From positions 120,001-152,000 of the forward strand of contig JAIUPJ010000001.1 in the NCBI GenBank assembly GCA_020160975.1: a stretch of 32,000 bases of DNA. Reading direction: 5' to 3'. Below are positions 5,442 through 28,852 of this stretch, piece after piece. Position numbers and translations under genes: made by a program. The notes below the pieces were generated by a model. The model worked only from the letters and a program-made list of their open reading frames with translations, did no database searches and was not told where the DNA came from. The first letter of the stretch is position 1, and each line of letters opens with the position of its first letter. The stretch is from Candidatus Saccharimonadota bacterium. GTDB taxonomy: Bacteria; Patescibacteriota; Saccharimonadia; Saccharimonadales; Saccharimonadaceae.

Positions 5442-5457
5442 AGGAGTAACCAAAAGT

Positions 5458-5491
5458 AAGAGCCCCGATCCTGCACAGGAGCGGGGCTCTT
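5458..5491. terminator. Bidirectional intrinsic terminator between convergent genes
   Basis: Perfect 10-bp stem AAGAGCCCCG (5458-5467) / CGGGGCTCTT (5482-5491) with a 14-nt loop, lying between the recR stop and the stop of the minus-strand ORF. Confidence 0.7.
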
Positions 5492-5514
5492 ACTGTGCGG
5501 GTTCGGGGCTTTGA

Positions 5515-5832
5515 TCAGGCGGCGATGATTGCCGCGCCGACACCATGCGTGCGGCTGGGTCGAAGCTGCAGGTGAAGCTCCTCGTGGCCGCTGGCATGGG
5601 CCATGCCTTGGATGATGTGAAGTATCTCCTCATCACTCCGCTGGGGACAGTTGAGAGCCAACTTCAGCTGCTCAACAACCGCCGGCGAGAACACGACGAT
5701 ACCACTCTGCTCCGACAATGCAATCGCCAATCTCGCCTGAAGGCAATAGTGGTTGATCGTCGCCTCGATGTAGTACGACTGGGCATTGCGTGCCCGTACT
5801 TCGAGGGCCTCGACTTTTCGAGAATCTGACAT
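5515..5832 (-). CDS. Hypothetical protein (105 aa)
   Basis: Has its own extended -10 (TGCTATAAT, complement of 5867-5875) and a GGAAGG Shine-Dalgarno 6 nt before the ATG. No family recognised. Confidence 0.55.
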   Translation of the reverse strand: MSDSRKVEALEVRARNAQSYYIEATINHYCLQARLAIALSEQSGIVVFSPAVVEQLKLALNCPQRSDEEILHIIQGMAHASGHEELHLQLRPSRTHGVGAAIIAA

Positions 5833-5924
5833 GGATAGCCTTCCATCTGGAGTAGATTGGAATTATATTATAGCACAGTTTATGCGTTTGTGTCAATAGC
5901 CTTACGCAAGGTATACTGGTAGAT

Positions 5925-19469: not shown

Positions 19470-19671
19470 ACGGAAGAACCGTATGCTTATTGCCGCGGCG
19501 TTCGACGCCACAATCGTAGCTCGCCGTAAATCGGGTCAACCGGACGCCGCGCTCGACACGTTCGTCAAGATGGGGGAGCGTGATACCGAGCCGCTCATAA
19601 TCACGAGTAAGAAGTGAGTGCATTGCCTCGGCATCTTCTGGAGTGGGGTAGCGATAGGTTATTTCTTTCAT
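19408..19671 (-). CDS. Short ORF (87 aa) with a GNAT-like N-terminus; possible remnant
   Basis: MKEITYRYPTPEDAEAMHSLL resembles the start of GNAT acetyltransferases, but the rest does not. TGGTATACT extended -10 lies 10 nt upstream. The 3' 62 nt overlap ackA antisense. Confidence 0.35.
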   Translation of the reverse strand: MKEITYRYPTPEDAEAMHSLLTRDYERLGITLPHLDERVERGVRLTRFTASYDCGVERRGNKHTVLPFIRKLIAWCVERFRVLHGQE

Positions 19672-19697
19672 ACTTGCTTCAAGTATACCACGAGGTA

Positions 19698-19726
19698 TTG
19701 CATATTCATGATGTTTGTGCTATAAT
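19698..19726 (+). promoter_or_regulatory. Near-consensus promoter driving the structured leader upstream of the NRAMP gene
   Basis: TTGCAT (19698-19703), 17-nt spacer, extended -10 TGCTATAAT (19718-19726). Confidence 0.7.
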
Positions 19727-19732
19727 AGAATT

Positions 19733-20046
19733 TAGGCTTGCTGACATCACTAGTCGCTACAATAACTTTGGAGAATTGTGACCGAGAAGCTTTCCTTTGT
19801 GAAATACCCCCCCGGAACCGATGCGGCAAAGTCTGTGTTGGCATTCATAGAGCTCTGGAAGGAGTATGTTGAAATAGCCCCGCACTGCAGCCCGCTCGAT
19901 GTGGCTGCGATGCGAAAGCGCCTCCGCGTCGCCTGGCGGCGCCACTGGAGGGACCACGGACGGCTGATTGTCCGGTCGTCCTGCCATCGCCCCGCGGGGC
20001 CGCACTGAGATTCGTCTCGGAGCGGCCCCGGCCAGGGGCGATTTTT
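19733..20046 (+). promoter_or_regulatory. Roughly 315-nt G+C-rich structured leader ending in a long intrinsic terminator; candidate riboswitch or attenuator, class unassigned
   Basis: Runs from the promoter-predicted TSS to a roughly 21-bp composite hairpin (19987-20041: TCGCCCC..GGGGCCGC..GAGA-TTCG-TCTC..GCGGCCCC..GGGGCGA) followed by TTTTT (20042-20046). The NRAMP ATG lies 55 nt further on. Confidence 0.5.
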
Positions 20047-20100
20047 CATATTCTGCACTGTGATACAATACGTCATAGATTAGCTTAAACGGAATAGTCC

Positions 20101-22885: not shown

Positions 22886-23320
22886 ATGCAAAGAAGCCGC
22901 GGCTTTACCCTCATCGAAATTGCTGTTGTCGTAACGGTTATTGCGCTATTGGCATCAATTGTCATCGTCAGTTTCAATCAAGTCCAAAAGCGTTCTCGCG
23001 ATGATATGCGCACGGTACAAGTCACCGCCCTCAAGACCGCGCTTGACCGATATTACAACGACAATGGTGAGTATCCTGTTTGTCCGGGCGGGCCCAACAG
23101 CGAATGCTCGGCGTCGCAGTATCTTACTCCCATTCTCGTGCCCACCTACACCTCATCTGTTCCTGACCAACCCAACAATCAGCCGTACACCTACGTCCGG
23201 GGCACTCCTAGCGACTCATACGGTATTTTCGTGAACTACGAGGTGCTTTTGGCATGTAAGACCGGCCGAAACATGTCTGCGACATGGTATGGCGGGTGGG
23301 GCAATGTCTGTAGTCTCTAG
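22886..23320 (+). CDS. Type IV pilin-like protein (prepilin N-terminal domain)
   Basis: MQRSRG|FTLIEIAVVVTVIALLASIVIVSF. ATG 22886 is preferred over the track GTG at 22868. TGCTACACT lies 6 nt upstream. Confidence 0.85.
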   Translation: MQRSRGFTLIEIAVVVTVIALLASIVIVSFNQVQKRSRDDMRTVQVTALKTALDRYYNDNGEYPVCPGGPNSECSASQYLTPILVPTYTSSVPDQPNNQPYTYVRGTPSDSYGIFVNYEVLLACKTGRNMSATWYGGWGNVCSL

Positions 23321-23808
23321 CTCGTCTTAATGCGTCGGTAAGTGAATTTCGCTGCAGGACGCCAGCCGCCGCGGGCATCGTGGTCGGCCTGGTAGAGCGT
23401 CCCGTCTCGCACTTCTTCGACCAGGATGAGCGCGGGTGTATACGGAGCAAGTGTGCGATAAAACACCAAGTCGCTGTCGTGGATGTCCTTGCGACCAGGA
23501 TAGACTTCTTTAAACTTTGCTTCGCCTACTTCGTCAAAATAACGCGGGCGGCCCTTTGGCGGTATATACATCTCGGCTTTTAACCCGATTCGTGCCACGA
23601 TTTTCTTGACATCACTCAGAAGCAGCTTGGCAGGCCCGTAGATGTAGCAGTAGAGCTGCTTCTTGCGGCTAAGGAAGACCGTGGCTTTGGCCGACTGACC
23701 CACAGCAATATCGCGCACGATTGCCTTGTCAACATCAATCGGCACGCCGAATTTTTCCTTTATCTCGCGCTCGATGGTGAAATCATCGAACATATCGCCA
23801 GTATTCAT
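23317..23808 (-). CDS. Hypothetical protein (163 aa)
   Basis: Clean ORF with TGCTATACT extended -10 6 nt upstream of the ATG. Its stop overlaps the pilin stop (CTAG). No family recognised. Confidence 0.6.
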   Translation of the reverse strand: MNTGDMFDDFTIEREIKEKFGVPIDVDKAIVRDIAVGQSAKATVFLSRKKQLYCYIYGPAKLLLSDVKKIVARIGLKAEMYIPPKGRPRYFDEVGEAKFKEVYPGRKDIHDSDLVFYRTLAPYTPALILVEEVRDGTLYQADHDARGGWRPAAKFTYRRIKTS

Positions 23809-23850
23809 AGGGGTAGTATAGCAGTTTTTTGAGATTATTGATAAAAATCA

Positions 23851-23879
23851 TTGACATTTTTGTAATAATGATATATAAT
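23851..23879 (+). promoter_or_regulatory. Consensus sigma70 promoter for candidate ncRNA B
   Basis: TTGACA (23851-23856), exactly 17-nt spacer, TATAAT (23874-23879), in an AT-rich divergent region. Confidence 0.8.
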
Positions 23880-23885
23880 GTTAAA

Positions 23886-24386
23886 TACCCTCGCAAGAGG
23901 GCGGTACACGCAGTTACATGCCGATTCCCCCACGACTCCACGGAGTTTGTGGGCACGGGGTACGACAGCTTACAGGCTGTTGTCGTACCTATTGGGCTTC
24001 GGCTCATAAACGTGGATAGCCTGCGGCTCCGCTCTAGCAAGCGAAAGAGACAAGAAGTGTGAGCGGCACTTGCAGTACTTGGCTCAAGTAGGCATGGAGT
24101 ACCCGCTCCATTGCGCGGCCCTTGGCCGTCACCCCTACGGGGGTTCAAGCAGGAATGGGCACCTGCGTTAGGGCGCGATACGGCTCACCGGGAACGTCTC
24201 GGTGCAACTATCGCCCCTCTAGGCCAGTGAGAAGGAGGGCACTACTTTTCACAAAGAAATGGCCAGTCGTGCGGTTCGATCCACATAGCAGTGCCCCCTG
24301 GGGGCCGGGAACAACACATCGCCGCAAGGCGACGTGCCCGGCCTCCAGGCCTTTTTCATTTCACACCCTTTCCAGGGTGTTTTTTG
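23886..24386 (+). ncRNA. Candidate large structured ncRNA B (about 500 nt), class unknown
   Basis: Starts at the promoter-predicted TSS and ends at tandem terminators (GGCC-TCCA-GGCC+TTTTT at 24340-24356; ACACCCT-TTCC-AGGGTGT+TTTTTT at 24363-24386). A sampled 60-nt line is 63% G+C. Contains GNRA and UUCG tetraloop hairpins. Only implausible ORFs are present. Confidence 0.6.
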
Positions 24387-24414
24387 TTGGCTAAAAAGTC
24401 GATCGGAGAATATT

Positions 24415-24521
24415 CACCCATAAGTTTCGTATGGTCGTGTGACATGAGAGAATCTAGGCTTGCGGCCTGGAATTTCTCATGCCACAGCGTCTATTGCCAA
24501 TAGATACCAAACTTATGGGTG
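24415..24521. repeat. 107-nt element bounded by a perfect 13-bp inverted repeat
   Basis: CACCCATAAGTTT (24415-24427) and AAACTTATGGGTG (24509-24521) are exact reverse complements. Nested imperfect hairpins lie inside (CATGAGAGAAT..AATTTCTCATG). The right arm abuts the helicase promoter. Confidence 0.5.
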
Positions 24522-24546
24522 AAGATTCGGGGTATAATAAACTGCA

Positions 24547-27500
24547 ATGACCAACTTTTCTTCACGCTACAAAAACCTGAATGCCGCTCAAAAACAAGCA
24601 GTCGACACTATTGATGGGCCGCTACTGGTGATTGCTGGGCCCGGGACAGGCAAGACAGAATTGCTTAGCATGCGTACGGCCAACATATTGCAAAAGACCG
24701 ACACACTACCGGAAAATATCTTGTGCTTGACCTTTACGGATAGCGGCGCGACCGCCATGCGAGAGCGTCTCAGTCAAATCATCGGCCCGGCTGCCTACAA
24801 AGTCGCCATCCACACCTTCCACAGCTTTGGCACAGAAGTCATCAACCAAAACAACCAGTACTTTTACCAAGGCGCCAACTTCAAGCCAGCCGACGAGTTG
24901 GCGCAGTACGAAATCTTGACTAGTATCTTCGACGAACTAGACTATACCAACCCATTGGCCAGCAAGCTGGGCGACGAATACACTCACCGACGTGATGCTG
25001 CACGGATTATCAGCGAGCTGAAGCAAGCTGGGCTGACGAGTGACGAGCTACTGGCGATTATTCAGGCCAACGAAACTGTGCTCGATGCCGTCGAGCCAGA
25101 CCTGATGCGTATTTTTGCTGAAAAAATCAGCACTACCATGCTGACACATCTGGTGCCGCTGGCCCAAAAAGTCGCCGCGCTGGTGCAACCAAATCTGCCG
25201 CCCGGCATCACGCCGCTGGCAAATGTCCTGGCACTCAGCATGGCGCACGCCTTTGACGCAGCGGTCGAAACCGGCAAGACCAACGCACTTACCGCTTGGC
25301 GCAACCAATGGATGGAAAAAAATGAATCAGGTGAATTTGTATTCAAGGATCGCAAGCGCTACATAAAGCTGCGTGCCATGAGCCACGTGTACTACTCGTA
25401 CCTCACTCGCATGGAGCAAGCCGGACTGTACGATTACGACGACATGATCTTGAACGTTATCCATGCCATGGAGCTACACAAAGACCTGTCCTATAACTTG
25501 CAGGAAAAGTATCACTATATTCTGGTGGATGAATTTCAAGACACCAACTTGGCACAGCTACGTATTCTATTTGACCTGACCAGCAGCGTGACGGGTGATG
25601 CGCCAAATATCATGGCTGTCGGCGATGACGACCAGGCGATTTACAGCTTTCAAGGGGCAGATGTCAATAATATTCATCGCTTCGCCGCACAATACCCAGG
25701 GTTTCATAGTATAGTGCTGACCGACAATTATCGTTCAGCGAGCACAATTCTTGAATCTGCACGTACTGTCATAACGCAGGGAGGTGACCGACTAGAGCAA
25801 ACAATGGGGCTTAACAAAAAGCTCACTGCTCATGCTAGTCCAGACAATCCTTTTGTCTGCTTGCACGAACTGAGCCATACCAGCAATGAAAGAAGCTGGA
25901 TTGCCAAAAAAATCAAAGAACGTATCGCTGCTGGCACCGCTCCAGACTCAATTGCGATACTGGCAAGACGCCACCAAGAACTTATTGCGCTCGCCCCTTA
26001 TCTTGTCGATGCGGGCATCCCGATCCGCTATGAGCGTCGTGAAAATATTCTTGATTCTCCAGTGGTTCAGACACTTGAACTTATTGCACGGGTAGTTGTC
26101 GCGATCGCCGAAAGTAACCATAGCGAGACTAACTCTCAATTACCCGAGCTCCTCGCTCACCCAATGTATGGGTTTACGCCCGAATCAATCTGGCGCCTTA
26201 GTATTACAAGTGCGCGCAATCACCTAAGTTGGCTTGAGACAATGATAGCAAGTACAGAATTTAAGCCATTTTCTGAATGGCTCATCACTCAGGCGGCGTC
26301 GATTGCTCGTGAACCGCTCGAACTAGTAATCGACCGATTGATTGGGCTTCCAAGCGATACCGTAGGTAATGAAGTTGTTGGCTTTCGTTCACCGTTTTAT
26401 CACTACTATTTTGGTGAAGAATCAAAGAACACTCATGCTCAGCACTACATTGAAGCGCTCGAATCTCTTCGTACAATGCGCGACCATTTACGTGAATACA
26501 AGCCAGATCAACTGCTTTTGTTGACAGATCTGCTTGATTTCATTGACGCACATCGACAGTTAGGCACGCGAATTACCAGTGTTCAGCGCATAAACACAGC
26601 CGATGCCGCGGTACAACTCATGACCGCTCACAAGTCAAAAGGACTTGAGTTTGACCATATCTACGTGATCGGTGCAATTGATAGCGCCTGGGGAGAACGA
26701 GTTCGAAGTCGTAGCCGCCTCATTGGCTATCCTGCGAACCTCCCACTTGCCCCAAGCGGAGGCAGCTACGATGAGCGCCTGCGATTGTTCTATGTTGCAA
26801 TGACTCGGGCAAAACAGAGTCTGACAGTGACCTACAGTGCAGCCGATGACCTGGAGAGGACGCAACTGCTTGCAAGCTTTTTGACCGATACCGGACTTCA
26901 CCCAATCAAGGAGGTGCACACAAAAACAACACGCGAGTTGGTTCGAGATCAAGAAATTGCATGGCATGACCGACTAACCGCACATCCGACTTCTTCTATG
27001 AACGATTTAGTACGGCCAATTCTCGATACTTACAAATTATCAATCACTCATCTAAATAACTTTATCGATATTTCGCGTGGTGGTCCAACTCACTTTCTTC
27101 TCAGTAATCTTTTGCGTTTTCCTCAGGCAAAAAGCGCCAATGCGGCCTATGGTACGGTAATTCATCGTACACTTCAAAAAGCCCACAATCATCTAAGCGC
27201 AACGGGTGAACGTCGCCCGGTTGAAGACGTGCTGGGAGATTTTGTCGCCGAACTCCACGACCAACACCTCTCTCGCGACGACGAGCTTCTCTATGCCAAG
27301 CGCGGCGCCGATAGTCTCAACGTATTTCTACGTAATTGCTACGACGGCTTTCTCCCTGGACAAAAAACAGAGCTGAATTTTGCAAATCAAGGTGTCGTGA
27401 TCAACGAGGCAAGACTGACTGGGGCACTTGACGTCGTGACGCTTGAGGGGCAAGAGATAGTGGTAACAGACTACAAAACAGGCAAACCGTCCCGCGACTG

Positions 27501-27831
27501 GCAGGGAAAGACCGACTGGGAGAAGATAAAGCTCCACAAATATCGTCAACAATTGATGTTTTACCAGCTTTTGACTGAGCATTCGAGAGATTATAGCAAA
27601 TACGATTTCCAGCGCGGAGTCTTGCAGTTTGTCGAACCCGATGCCGCAGGGCGCATCCACGCACTCGATGCCAGCTTCACCCGCGAAGAACTAGTTGATT
27701 TTGCAAAACTGCTTGGTGCCGTCTGGCAATCCATCATGAAACTTGATTTTCCCGATATCAGTGACTATGACCCAACCTTCAAGGGAATGTTGCAATTTGA
27801 AGCAGATCTTATTGACAAATACGGTTATTAA
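24547..27831 (+). CDS. UvrD/PcrA-type superfamily 1 helicase fused to a C-terminal PD-(D/E)xK (RecB/AddB/Cas4-like) nuclease domain
   Basis: Q-motif LNAAQKQAV, Walker A AGPGTGKT, motif II VDEFQDTN, TAHKSKGLEF and YVAMTRAK. C-terminal GALDVVTL..IVVTDYKTGK..YRQQLMFYQLL nuclease core. TATAAT lies 8 nt before the ATG. Confidence 0.9.
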   Translation: MTNFSSRYKNLNAAQKQAVDTIDGPLLVIAGPGTGKTELLSMRTANILQKTDTLPENILCLTFTDSGATAMRERLSQIIGPAAYKVAIHTFHSFGTEVINQNNQYFYQGANFKPADELAQYEILTSIFDELDYTNPLASKLGDEYTHRRDAARIISELKQAGLTSDELLAIIQANETVLDAVEPDLMRIFAEKISTTMLTHLVPLAQKVAALVQPNLPPGITPLANVLALSMAHAFDAAVETGKTNALTAWRNQWMEKNESGEFVFKDRKRYIKLRAMSHVYYSYLTRMEQAGLYDYDDMILNVIHAMELHKDLSYNLQEKYHYILVDEFQDTNLAQLRILFDLTSSVTGDAPNIMAVGDDDQAIYSFQGADVNNIHRFAAQYPGFHSIVLTDNYRSASTILESARTVITQGGDRLEQTMGLNKKLTAHASPDNPFVCLHELSHTSNERSWIAKKIKERIAAGTAPDSIAILARRHQELIALAPYLVDAGIPIRYERRENILDSPVVQTLELIARVVVAIAESNHSETNSQLPELLAHPMYGFTPESIWRLSITSARNHLSWLETMIASTEFKPFSEWLITQAASIAREPLELVIDRLIGLPSDTVGNEVVGFRSPFYHYYFGEESKNTHAQHYIEALESLRTMRDHLREYKPDQLLLLTDLLDFIDAHRQLGTRITSVQRINTADAAVQLMTAHKSKGLEFDHIYVIGAIDSAWGERVRSRSRLIGYPANLPLAPSGGSYDERLRLFYVAMTRAKQSLTVTYSAADDLERTQLLASFLTDTGLHPIKEVHTKTTRELVRDQEIAWHDRLTAHPTSSMNDLVRPILDTYKLSITHLNNFIDISRGGPTHFLLSNLLRFPQAKSANAAYGTVIHRTLQKAHNHLSATGERRPVEDVLGDFVAELHDQHLSRDDELLYAKRGADSLNVFLRNCYDGFLPGQKTELNFANQGVVINEARLTGALDVVTLEGQEIVVTDYKTGKPSRDWQGKTDWEKIKLHKYRQQLMFYQLLTEHSRDYSKYDFQRGVLQFVEPDAAGRIHALDASFTREELVDFAKLLGAVWQSIMKLDFPDISDYDPTFKGMLQFEADLIDKYGY

Positions 27832-27840
27832 GACTATGAT
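27812..27840 (+). promoter_or_regulatory. Near-consensus promoter for candidate ncRNA C, embedded in the helicase 3' end
   Basis: TTGACA (27812-27817), 17-nt spacer, TATGAT (27835-27840). Confidence 0.7.
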
Positions 27841-27847
27841 ATCATTT

Positions 27848-28432
27848 AGTCGCGAGGGAATTACCCTAGCAACGAACACCTCGAAAGGGTGAGCACATTG
27901 GCACATGGAGGTAACGAAGGCGAAGCCCGACAGAGGGCTCACGATGCCTACAAGGCCGCCTTGGAGAGCGACCCGAGAGGCGCGTCCGAGGACACGAAGC
28001 AGCTGAAGGCGGCCCTCGATGCAGCCGCCGCTCGCGAGAACGAAGCGAAGGGAACACCCGGCCAGCGGAGGTACTGAGGCGGCCACGATTGCCGTGAGGC
28101 AACCGTACGAAAGCTCGGGATGCGGCAGTAGCCGGCACGTGGACGCACGGAGGGTACAACCCCTACATCCCAACCAATCTTCTCCTGGGCCAACACACCC
28201 CCATGTGGTCCGGGAGAAGGGGGCAAGTGCATCGAGGGCAGGGCCCCTGCACTTCTGGAGAGCTGCCGTGTCCCCCATTGGCAGGCTCCCAGCACCCCGC
28301 TGCCAGCGCTCCAGTCGCTCGGCAGCGGGGTGGCCCAACAACACACCCTAGGCCAGTACTTGGCGCTCCCACCAGCGCTTCGAGGAACACCTCACCCTTA
28401 TAGCCGTCTCTTCATTGAGGCGGCTTATTCAA
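27848..28432 (+). ncRNA. Candidate large structured ncRNA C (about 585 nt), class unknown
   Basis: Sampled 60-nt lines are 67-72% G+C, against 32% in a sampled helicase line. Perfect long stems: GGCCGCCTT/AAGGCGGCC within 27952-28013, CCCCGCTGCC/GGCAGCGGGG at 28295-28330 and AAGTGCA/TGCACTT. GNRA loops TTGCC-GTGA-GGCAA and CACCTC-GAAA-GGGTG. Terminator-like AGCCGTCTC-TTCATT-GAGGCGGCT at 28402-28425. Confidence 0.55.
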
Positions 28433-28484: not shown

Positions 28485-28852
28485 AAGTTGGCAGAGCTGT
28501 AGGGCACCCTCTACGCCTAGACCCGCTGTATCGGTAGATACAAAAAAAGCCCCGTTCTCGAGTACCTTTCATGAGAGGTGAGCGGTGAAGGTAGAGGAGG
28601 TGTTGCCCGCGCGCCCAAGATCCTACCTGAAGAGAGCAGCACCTGGCAGACTCCCCAAAGAACTGCTGGTTGAAACAGGCGCGCTCGACGCCTCTGCACT
28701 CTCTTTTCTGGCCTGACGAGCCACGAAATCGTCAAAGGCTGTATGGCACAGTGGACAGCGTATCAGCGTGCCAAGCTGAAGGTGTGACTTTGATCATCGC
28801 CACAGCCACCCGCCCTCGTCTCGTGTGTACACATGCGTGACGAGGGCTTTTC
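28485..28852 (+). ncRNA. Candidate structured ncRNA D (about 370 nt), class unknown
   Basis: Lies between the promoter and a strong terminator: GCCCTCGTC (28812-28820) / GACGAGGGC (28839-28847) followed by TTTTCC. G+C-rich with internal hairpins such as GACGA-GCCACGAAA-TCGTC. No credible ORF. The dus-like gene has its own -10 further downstream. Confidence 0.5.

Follow-up and report, generated by a model that had tools for sequence, protein, structure and literature searches.

What occupies the unusually long gap between two divergent genes, p163 and a UvrD-type helicase gene, on a Saccharibacteria (TM7) chromosome? The gap is a spacer of 738 bp (23809–24546) in the window, by which we mean the whole stretch of 32,000 nucleotides (nt) analyzed here (contig JAIUPJ010000001.1, positions 120,001–152,000 of the forward strand). 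An earlier note, made from the letters of the sequence, had proposed that most of this spacer is an independent structured noncoding RNA (ncRNA) gene. Its folding z-score, its homologues, the compensatory changes among them, the conservation of its core and the lack of a conserved reading frame all agree with that proposal. We conclude that the spacer very likely contains a genuine structured ncRNA gene of ∼470–500 nt that belongs to no known family, and the evidence is strong for a purely computational case.

The predicted RNA folds far more stably than dinucleotide-shuffled sequence. Its minimum free energy (MFE) is −235 kcal/mol, compared with −187 ± 7 kcal/mol for 100 dinucleotide shuffles (z = −6.7). 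In a separate second shuffle control that included coding and intergenic segments, the RNA has a z-score of −6.3, three coding segments have values from −0.1 to −2.8, and the window's other intergenic regions are mostly near 0. In the interior of the RNA, hairpins with GNRA, UNCG and similar loops follow one another. The hairpins listed in the earlier note nearly all exist and form in the MFE or consensus folds (Table 1); the exception is a GAGCGG..CCGCTC stem (24062/24103), which we rejected, those bases being paired locally in both folds. The hairpin at the predicted 5′ end has an equivalent, CCCUCG-AAU-CGAGGG, at the same position in L166 and L178 (L-numbers are labels for the related Saccharibacteria loci used in our comparisons). 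Beyond it lies a 5′ domain with hairpins at 23929–23953 and 23958–23990 and a UUCG-type hairpin.

Orthologous contigs of the RNA gene were reached via p163 homologues. An nhmmer search with the RNA against 80 genome loci returned nothing and, after more loci were added, only orthologues of the same type, which form three groups: L161–163 from the same species, L166/167 from a second lineage, and L178, a fragment that holds only the 5′ domain. The two parts of the RNA evolve very differently. Proteins of the window and L166 are ∼72–81% identical and the flanking coding DNA is 55–86% identical, compared with 88–98% for the RNA core; the 5′ domain shows ∼60% identity, and a patch at its start (23903–23930) differs even in the same-species genome L161. 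The fast-evolving domain is where the fold can be tested by substitution. Hairpins 23929–23953 and 23958–23990 contain five double compensatory pairs (for example CCCAC/GUGGG to CUCAU/AUGAG), a number reached by none of 500 column shuffles, and slid-partner controls gave 0–2. The consensus structure, of 162 pairs, is 96.9% paired.

The orthologues also speak against a coding function. All open reading frames (ORFs) of at least 25 amino acids (aa) in the RNA and its relatives are rich in R, P, G and S and have no Shine-Dalgarno sequence, in line with the earlier description of R/P/G-rich nonsense. A conserved reading frame is ruled out because orthologue insertions and deletions, of +2, +5, +3 and −1 nt in L161 and +5 and +3 nt in L166 relative to the window RNA, break every frame.

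A promoter and two terminators delimit the RNA. Its sigma-70 promoter, which had been described as the best in the window, is the only perfect match (12/12) on the + strand, but an equal 12/12 match lies on the − strand at 5896–5867. The promoter stands back to back with that of p163, whose −35 box (23844–23839) is on the opposite strand 6 bp away. From the position of the −10 box we infer a transcript start at about 23886. Both of the consecutive rho-independent terminators that had been read at the 3′ end are present; the hairpin of the first consists of 13 bp, an AACAA internal loop and 8 bp capped by GCAA (21 bp in all). The consensus fold contains at least 12 conserved G-U pairs, and the + strand is favored because these would be A-C mismatches on the opposite strand.

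In the Rfam check that the earlier note had proposed, no known family matched. We scanned the whole window with the 4227 models of Rfam 15 at the gathering threshold, and 23700–24600 at E-values up to 10; the models included RNase P, tmRNA, 6S, signal recognition particle (SRP) RNA, OLE, ROOL, GOLLD, raiA and HEARO as well as group I and II introns and small ribozymes. At the gathering threshold the only matches are two tRNAs elsewhere in the window, and the permissive scan gave five chance-level hits, none of them to a large RNA family. Individual candidates were also rejected. ARAGORN finds no tmRNA, no CCA follows helix Pa (described below), and the loop of the hairpin enclosed by Pa, Hx, has 6 nt, with a 5-nt loop insertion in L166. 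For RNase P RNA there is no model match and no readable GGAAAGUCC-type P4 motif, and L001 and L173, the nearest relatives, lack the gene. The multi-branched fold of 470–500 nt differs from the ∼180-nt rod with a central bubble of 6S RNA, which likewise has no model match. Membership in ROOL, GOLLD or OLE was rejected on the lack of a model match, of phage or plasmid copies and of a linked oapA among the neighbors. A helicase leader or riboswitch is contradicted by the two terminators and the helicase's own −10 box downstream of the RNA, most relatives being leaderless, and a retron, type III toxin–antitoxin or CRISPR-type RNA by the lack of a linked partner gene within 5 kb. Our literature search found no description of a structured or large ncRNA in Saccharibacteria or the candidate phyla radiation.

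The same slot between p163 and the helicase holds an RNA gene in eight further loci (L165, L168–170, L083, L010, L002, L007, L091 and L061). Their promoters are near-consensus, lie ∼40 nt from the p163 start and are directed at the helicase; the RNAs are 280–600 nt, GC-rich and ORF-free, and at their 3′ end a U-run follows a long GC hairpin, often together with another terminator. Four of them were folded (L010, L007, L061 and L002) and have z-scores of −6 to −9.5, and the Rfam scan was negative for the same four. Their interiors cannot be aligned with the window RNA and mostly not with one another: in a k-mer search for motifs common to the whole family, the U-run alone exceeded shuffled expectation, and pairwise blastn between types found just the L165–L168 blocks plus terminator and promoter regions. 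A MAFFT global alignment of all 11 RNAs is unreliable outside the 3′ end and mis-registers short helices between types. L165, L166 and L168 are equally distant from the window, yet the interior differs in L165 and L168. All that these two share with each other is a 60-nt block at the 5′ end and a 130-nt block at the 3′ end, the middle being unrelated; with the window RNA they share solely the 3′ hairpin. The L165/L168/L170 type has three compensatory pairs in its 3′ block, and one whole hairpin has been gained or lost between L168 and L170. In L165, L168 and L170 the homologous long GC hairpin, with C-G to U-A covariation, is the sole terminator; the 3′ ends of L010 and L002 are, like that of the window RNA, two-step (UUUUCAC(C)CC...hairpin...U7).

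What these RNAs appear to share is the architecture of the 3′ end. A predicted three-way junction, formed by a closing helix, helix Pa and the long terminator hairpin, unites five otherwise unalignable sequence types of the slot. Pa changes from type to type with its pairing retained: GGCACU/AGUGCC in the window, GGUGUC/GGCACC in L165, GGUGUC/GACACC in L168 and L170, GGUAUC/GAUACC in L083 and GGUGGC/GCCACC in L010. It always ends exactly at the start of the long hairpin, and the region that it encloses measures between 7 and 303 nt. When the 3′ domain is folded in isolation, the junction is the MFE in both the window RNA and L170, and the full-length MFE of L010 contains it. The 5′ strand of Pa recurs within the RNA: GGCACU, the partner of a single AGUGCC, occurs twice in the window RNA (24065–24070 and 24238–24243) and three times in the same-species variant L161 (RNA positions 24, 187 and 360), one of these copies lying in the hypervariable 5′ patch. 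The copies are alternative pairing partners and could point to a folding pathway or a switch.

Table 1. Coordinates of the RNA gene, its structural elements and its genomic surroundings (window positions unless a locus is named)
Feature	Position	Strand	Basis or remark
Sigma-70 promoter: −35 TTGACA (23851–23856), 17-nt spacer, −10 TATAAT (23874–23879)	23851–23879	+	12/12 consensus score
Predicted transcript, ∼470 nt (to terminator 1) or ∼500 nt (to terminator 2)	23886–24386	+	promoter, terminators, fold
5′-terminal hairpin CCCUC-GCAA-GAGGG, GNRA loop	23888–23901	+	sequence, MFE/consensus fold
Fast-evolving 5′ domain	23903–24036	+	alignments with relatives
Hairpin GGGUACGACAGC..GCUGUUGUCGUACC	23958–23990	+	sequence, MFE or consensus fold
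Hairpin region GGGCU-UCGG-CUC	∼23994–24006	+	sequence, MFE or consensus fold
Conserved core	24037–24390	+	identity to L166
Hairpin ACCCC-UACG-GGGGU		+	sequence, MFE or consensus fold
Helix GCGAUA..UAUCGC enclosing CACCG..CGGUG		+	sequence, MFE or consensus fold
3′ three-way-junction domain	24226–24362	+	MFE of isolated domain, cross-type covariation
Closing helix AGUGAGAAGG with CCUUUUUCAU	24226–24235 with 24350–24359	+	pairing of purine-rich strand with U-rich tract
Helix Pa, GGCACU with AGUGCC	24238–24243 with 24290–24295	+	6 bp, abuts long hairpin
Hairpin Hx, GUGCGG-UUCGAU-CCACAU	24269–24286	+	enclosed by Pa
Long stem CCUGGGGGCCGGG..CCCGGCCUCCAGG	24297–24349	+	sequence, MFE or consensus fold
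Hairpin UCGCC-GCAA-GGCGA	24319–24332	+	sequence, MFE or consensus fold
Terminator 1, long GC-rich 3′ hairpin then UUUUUCAUUU	24297–24359	+	sequence, folds
Terminator 2, ACACCCU-UUCC-AGGGUGU + U6	24363–24386	+	direct sequence reading
p163, 163-aa ORF	23317–23808	−	no Pfam or NCBIfam family
UvrD-type helicase, 1094 aa, C-terminal PD-(D/E)XK nuclease domain	24547–27831	+	domain match
Insert-bearing slots elsewhere	L013 4543–5994; L015 921–2373; L016 1904–5994; L035 5080–5994; L099 4737–5000

The genomic position shows that the gene is not a fixed part of the chromosome. Its neighbors are a pilin-like gene, p163 (AlphaFold model with a mean predicted local distance difference test score (pLDDT) of 58, too low to be usable), the helicase and Dus. 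The window was assigned to Saccharibacteria through relatives of its helicase. p163 and the helicase gene are divergent neighbors, and in the 148 related loci that contain both of them the median spacer is 75 bp and the spacer is at most 140 bp in 97; because it is 738 bp here, we regard the RNA gene as an accessory insertion. The gene sits between the −10 boxes of its two neighbors, that of the helicase (TATAAT, 24533–24538) ending 8 nt before the ATG at 24547. Both flanking genes are apparently leaderless, judging from −10 boxes that end 6–8 nt before the start codons (window 23806–23820 and 24533–24549), and whole divergent spacers are just 35–60 bp in L001, L003, L019 and others. The site is empty in L001 and L173, whose helicases are the most similar (∼80% identity), and also in L179 and L180, and comparison of filled with empty sites shows no terminal repeats or target-site duplications at the borders of the insert. 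In other lineages the same spacer takes unrelated inserts: an ORF of ∼450 aa spanning most of a 1.45-kb spacer (L013 and L015), a 4-kb block (L016 and L147), AT-rich small minus-strand ORFs (oral clade) and a 260-bp near-perfect palindrome. The p163/helicase spacer is thus an insertion hot spot in Saccharibacteria. The RNA itself has no match in phage, plasmid or viral-contig collections and no further copy in 2 Mb of related loci. Up to 5 kb from the RNA gene in both directions, the window contains no reverse transcriptase, toxin or cas gene, and none is found in the gene tables of the orthologous contigs.

The explanation that we favor for all of these properties jointly, and to which we give somewhat better than an even chance, is that the gene represents an undescribed ncRNA family of some Saccharibacteria whose product is a stable RNA acting in trans, most likely as a scaffold. 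As far as sampled, the family would be restricted to some Saccharibacteria and patchy, with cassette-like types. A strong promoter, an extremely stable fold and protected ends suggest an abundant, long-lived RNA that works in trans; the elements that would protect the ends are the 5′-terminal hairpin and the 3′ GC clamp. The 3′ junction could then be the constant chassis of the family and the upstream tetraloop-capped hairpins its exchangeable modules. The most likely mode, by analogy to OLE, ROOL and GOLLD, would be as a scaffold in an RNA–protein particle or an RNA-only assembly. An accessory, strain-variable role rather than a housekeeping one, and exchange of the gene between strains, are suggested by its patchy occurrence, by its discrete types and by L178, a mosaic that joins an L166-like leader to window-like hairpins.

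The comparison with OLE, ROOL and GOLLD (PMC12286853, PMC5737381, PMC3413148) is drawn because the window RNA has no linked protein gene and consists of a modular array of hairpins. Those three RNAs work as scaffolds or as assemblies of RNA only, and when studied they turned out to form RNA-only homo-oligomers of a kind not seen before. Like ROOL and GOLLD (PMC5737381, PMC12286853), it is several hundred nt long, has tetraloop-capped hairpins, multi-way junctions, no linked protein gene and a patchy accessory distribution, and its function cannot be read from sequence alone; a tRNA gene also lies a few kb from it, and a tRNA-containing structured RNA lies beyond the helicase. Unlike them, it has no model match, no prophage or plasmid context and no family-wide conserved sequence, and it is smaller than GOLLD. 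The sole hint of the homo-oligomerization seen in ROOL, GOLLD and OLE is a pair of self-complementary loop sequences, AGUACU (24074–24079) and UCGA in the loop of Hx. OLE is well conserved in sequence, is confined to anaerobic extremophilic Firmicutes, has a linked partner gene, oapA, and is very highly expressed (PMC3413148, PMC12286853). The window RNA resembles OLE as a structured ncRNA of several hundred nt that is plausibly a scaffold, and its high expression is inferred only from the strong promoter; it differs in lacking good sequence conservation across its family, a Firmicutes genome, an oapA link and an Rfam match. With RNase P RNA and tmRNA it shares size range, long-range closing helices, its own promoter and, as predicted here, a stable and abundant product, but the defining motifs are absent, the models fail and the closest relatives do without the gene.

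Several points weigh against the favored explanation. Covariation within each sequence type rests on 3–4 distinct sequences, and the core is mostly invariant, so that it neither backs nor contradicts the fold. That distant genomes have nearly the same core may be due to recent recombination and not to constraint; the identity profile of the flanking genes gives no clear sign of a recombination tract and cannot be told apart from ordinary N-terminal conservation. When the window RNA is folded at full length, the MFE slightly prefers a local hairpin (24228–24253) that competes with the junction. The proposed homology of L002, L007, L091 and L061 to the window type is one of position and architecture only, and the acceptance of unrelated insertions by the slot weakens position-based homology for such deep lineages. 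Finally, the scaffold function, like any partner, is proposed by analogy.

The alternative that survives best is about what the RNA does for the cell and could hold alongside the favored mechanism: the RNA would be an accessory conflict RNA, serving phage defense, anti-defense, strain competition or host interaction and exchanged by recombination. Such a role would account for the presence of discrete, mutually unalignable types in a single slot and for close relatives without the gene. We consider it unlikely as the leading explanation. In its favor are the empty sites of L001, L173, L179 and L180, a core that is nearly the same in the window and L166 while the equally distant L165 and L168 differ inside, the mosaic L178, the use of the slot as an insertion hot spot and the gain or loss of whole hairpins between L168 and L170. 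What the reading lacks is a linked toxin, nuclease, reverse transcriptase or other defense gene, a copy in the phage, viral or plasmid collections, any target complementarity that we could find and a clear recombination tract in the flanking genes. A more elaborate reading, which we hold to be unlikely, is that the RNA, perhaps together with the second structured RNA described below, represents a new class of large RNA in ultra-small symbiotic bacteria: a constant 3′ three-way-junction chassis with hairpin cassettes swapped between strains would form an RNA-only machine, either a multimer or a ribozyme, in phage or host interaction.

It is improbable that the unit works only in cis, as a module that insulates or tunes the flanking leaderless promoters through promoter competition or supercoiling and whose transcript is an inert by-product. 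Such a role would fit an RNA promoter 6 bp from the p163 −35 box on the opposite strand, tandem terminators just upstream of the helicase promoter and a structure that is kept between types while sequence is not. But ∼97 of the 148 relatives manage with a gap of at most 140 bp and no such unit, the core is conserved far above what is expected of an inert by-product, and covariation in the junction helix speaks for a particular shape.

A decaying or selfish insertion of no cellular function, whether a mobile-element remnant or a pseudogene with chance signals, is distinctly improbable. Unrelated insertions do occur at the same site in other lineages and a separate palindromic element adjoins the RNA gene, but the core is more conserved than its coding neighbors, compensatory changes are present, and a consensus or near-consensus promoter is kept in at least 10 lineages. 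Comparison with empty sites also reveals no terminal repeats or target duplications, and there is no other copy in the 2 Mb searched.

We think it very improbable that the gene encodes a divergent housekeeping or catalytic RNA (RNase P RNA, tmRNA, 6S, SRP RNA or a group I or II intron) that the models missed. RNAs of the candidate phyla radiation are often atypical, and the size range of ∼300–600 nt and the multi-helix architecture recall RNase P RNA and tmRNA. Against this stand the failure of the Rfam scan at E = 10 and of ARAGORN, the lack of a readable GGAAAGUCC-type P4 sequence or CCA-ended tRNA-like domain, the lack of sequence conserved across types and the absence of the gene from the closest relatives, which means that it is not essential. 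Least probable of all is that the transcript serves as an mRNA and encodes one or more small proteins; the RNA downstream of the helicase does open with a small Shine-Dalgarno-preceded ORF, but the composition of the ORFs here, their lack of a Shine-Dalgarno sequence and the broken frames leave this reading with almost no room.

The palindromic element that adjoins the gene is an imperfect palindrome of ∼120 bp (24407–24527, arms CACCCATAAGTTT/AAACTTATGGGTG) between the RNA terminators and the helicase promoter, and the segment that bears it (24387–24546) has a fold z-score of about −9. It is also found in L166 and L168–170, with a conserved core of CATGAGAnTCYAGGC...GCCTrGAnTTCTCATG, and is an independent unit; it occurs alone, with no RNA gene, in L171, L172 and L176. 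It could be an operator, an attC-like or repetitive extragenic palindromic (REP)-like element, or a small mobile element.

Beyond the helicase gene is another large structured RNA, referred to here as the second RNA (27812–28432, +), whose TTGACA-17-TATGAT promoter lies inside the last helicase codons. The RNA itself (27847–28432) is ∼590 nt with 63% GC, a fold z-score of −5.3 and 5′ and 3′ ends that pair, and it has no Rfam match. A 217-aa ORF on the minus strand over it (27691–28344), with no Pfam hit, is probably spurious. Homologues were found by nhmmer in L001, L010, L166, L171 and L173, and at the 3′ end of the helicase gene many related loci have a near-consensus promoter followed by GC-rich sequence free of ORFs. 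The second RNA resembles the window RNA in its near-consensus promoter, GC-richness, closing helix and a hypervariable segment beside a conserved part; it differs in its wider occurrence, a small Shine-Dalgarno-preceded ORF and a tRNA or tRNA-like element, and the two show no overall similarity. They have in common three exact 9–11-mers, CAGTACTTGGC, CTAGGCCAGT and AACAACACA, which are scattered in the window RNA (24073–24083, 24219–24228 and 24310–24318) and contiguous in a 28-nt span (28337–28364) of the second RNA's conserved 3′ part, where AGUACUUGG is kept in L001, L010, L166 and L171. A loop–loop contact, or a common partner, is conceivable from these matches, AGUACU being self-complementary.

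The small ORF of the second RNA (27889–28077, +) has a GTG start, a Shine-Dalgarno-like sequence, the N-terminus VSTL and 62 aa. In relatives the leader and first four codons are kept and the remaining 38–62 aa are hypervariable; this remainder is wholly different even in the same-species L161, whose other proteins are 94–100% identical. Several versions have paired CxxC motifs, and the ∼640 nt downstream are at least 90% conserved. Further along is a tRNA-like remnant (28117–28176, +) with the 3′ end ...CAUCCCAACCA and an acceptor-like GGGAUG/CAUCCC pairing, at the position where the homologous transcript of L001 and L010 embeds a true tRNA; the Rfam tRNA match spans 104 nt in L010 and L007, which suggests an insertion. 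A separate tRNA (28737–28808, +; 41 bits in Rfam) has several non-canonical pairs and is missed by ARAGORN, and L161 holds a different tRNA sequence at its position.

Two other regions of the window deserve mention. The perfect minus-strand promoter precedes a GC-rich stretch (5442–5924, −; z = −4.8) that overlaps a 105-aa ORF (5832–5515) and ends in a hairpin and U-run near 5490–5455; this unit could be a small gene or another structured RNA. The 631-bp spacer between the acetate kinase and Nramp genes (19470–20100) has fold z-scores of −3.9 (+) and −3.1 (−) with weak ORFs only, and is possibly another structured element.

Large structured RNAs of unknown function are rare, and this one evolves in an unusual way: its types are near-invariant within and unalignable between, and they occupy one chromosomal slot and share a 3′ junction. 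Saccharibacteria are ultra-small symbiotic bacteria, and in a genome of ∼1 Mb, where this spacer is usually tens of bases, the retention of a 0.5-kb ncRNA gene under a strong promoter makes it likely that the RNA matters to the cell. If confirmed, it would offer a tractable entry to the RNA biology of the candidate phyla radiation, with a defined gene, strains that naturally possess or lack it and a set of natural variants.

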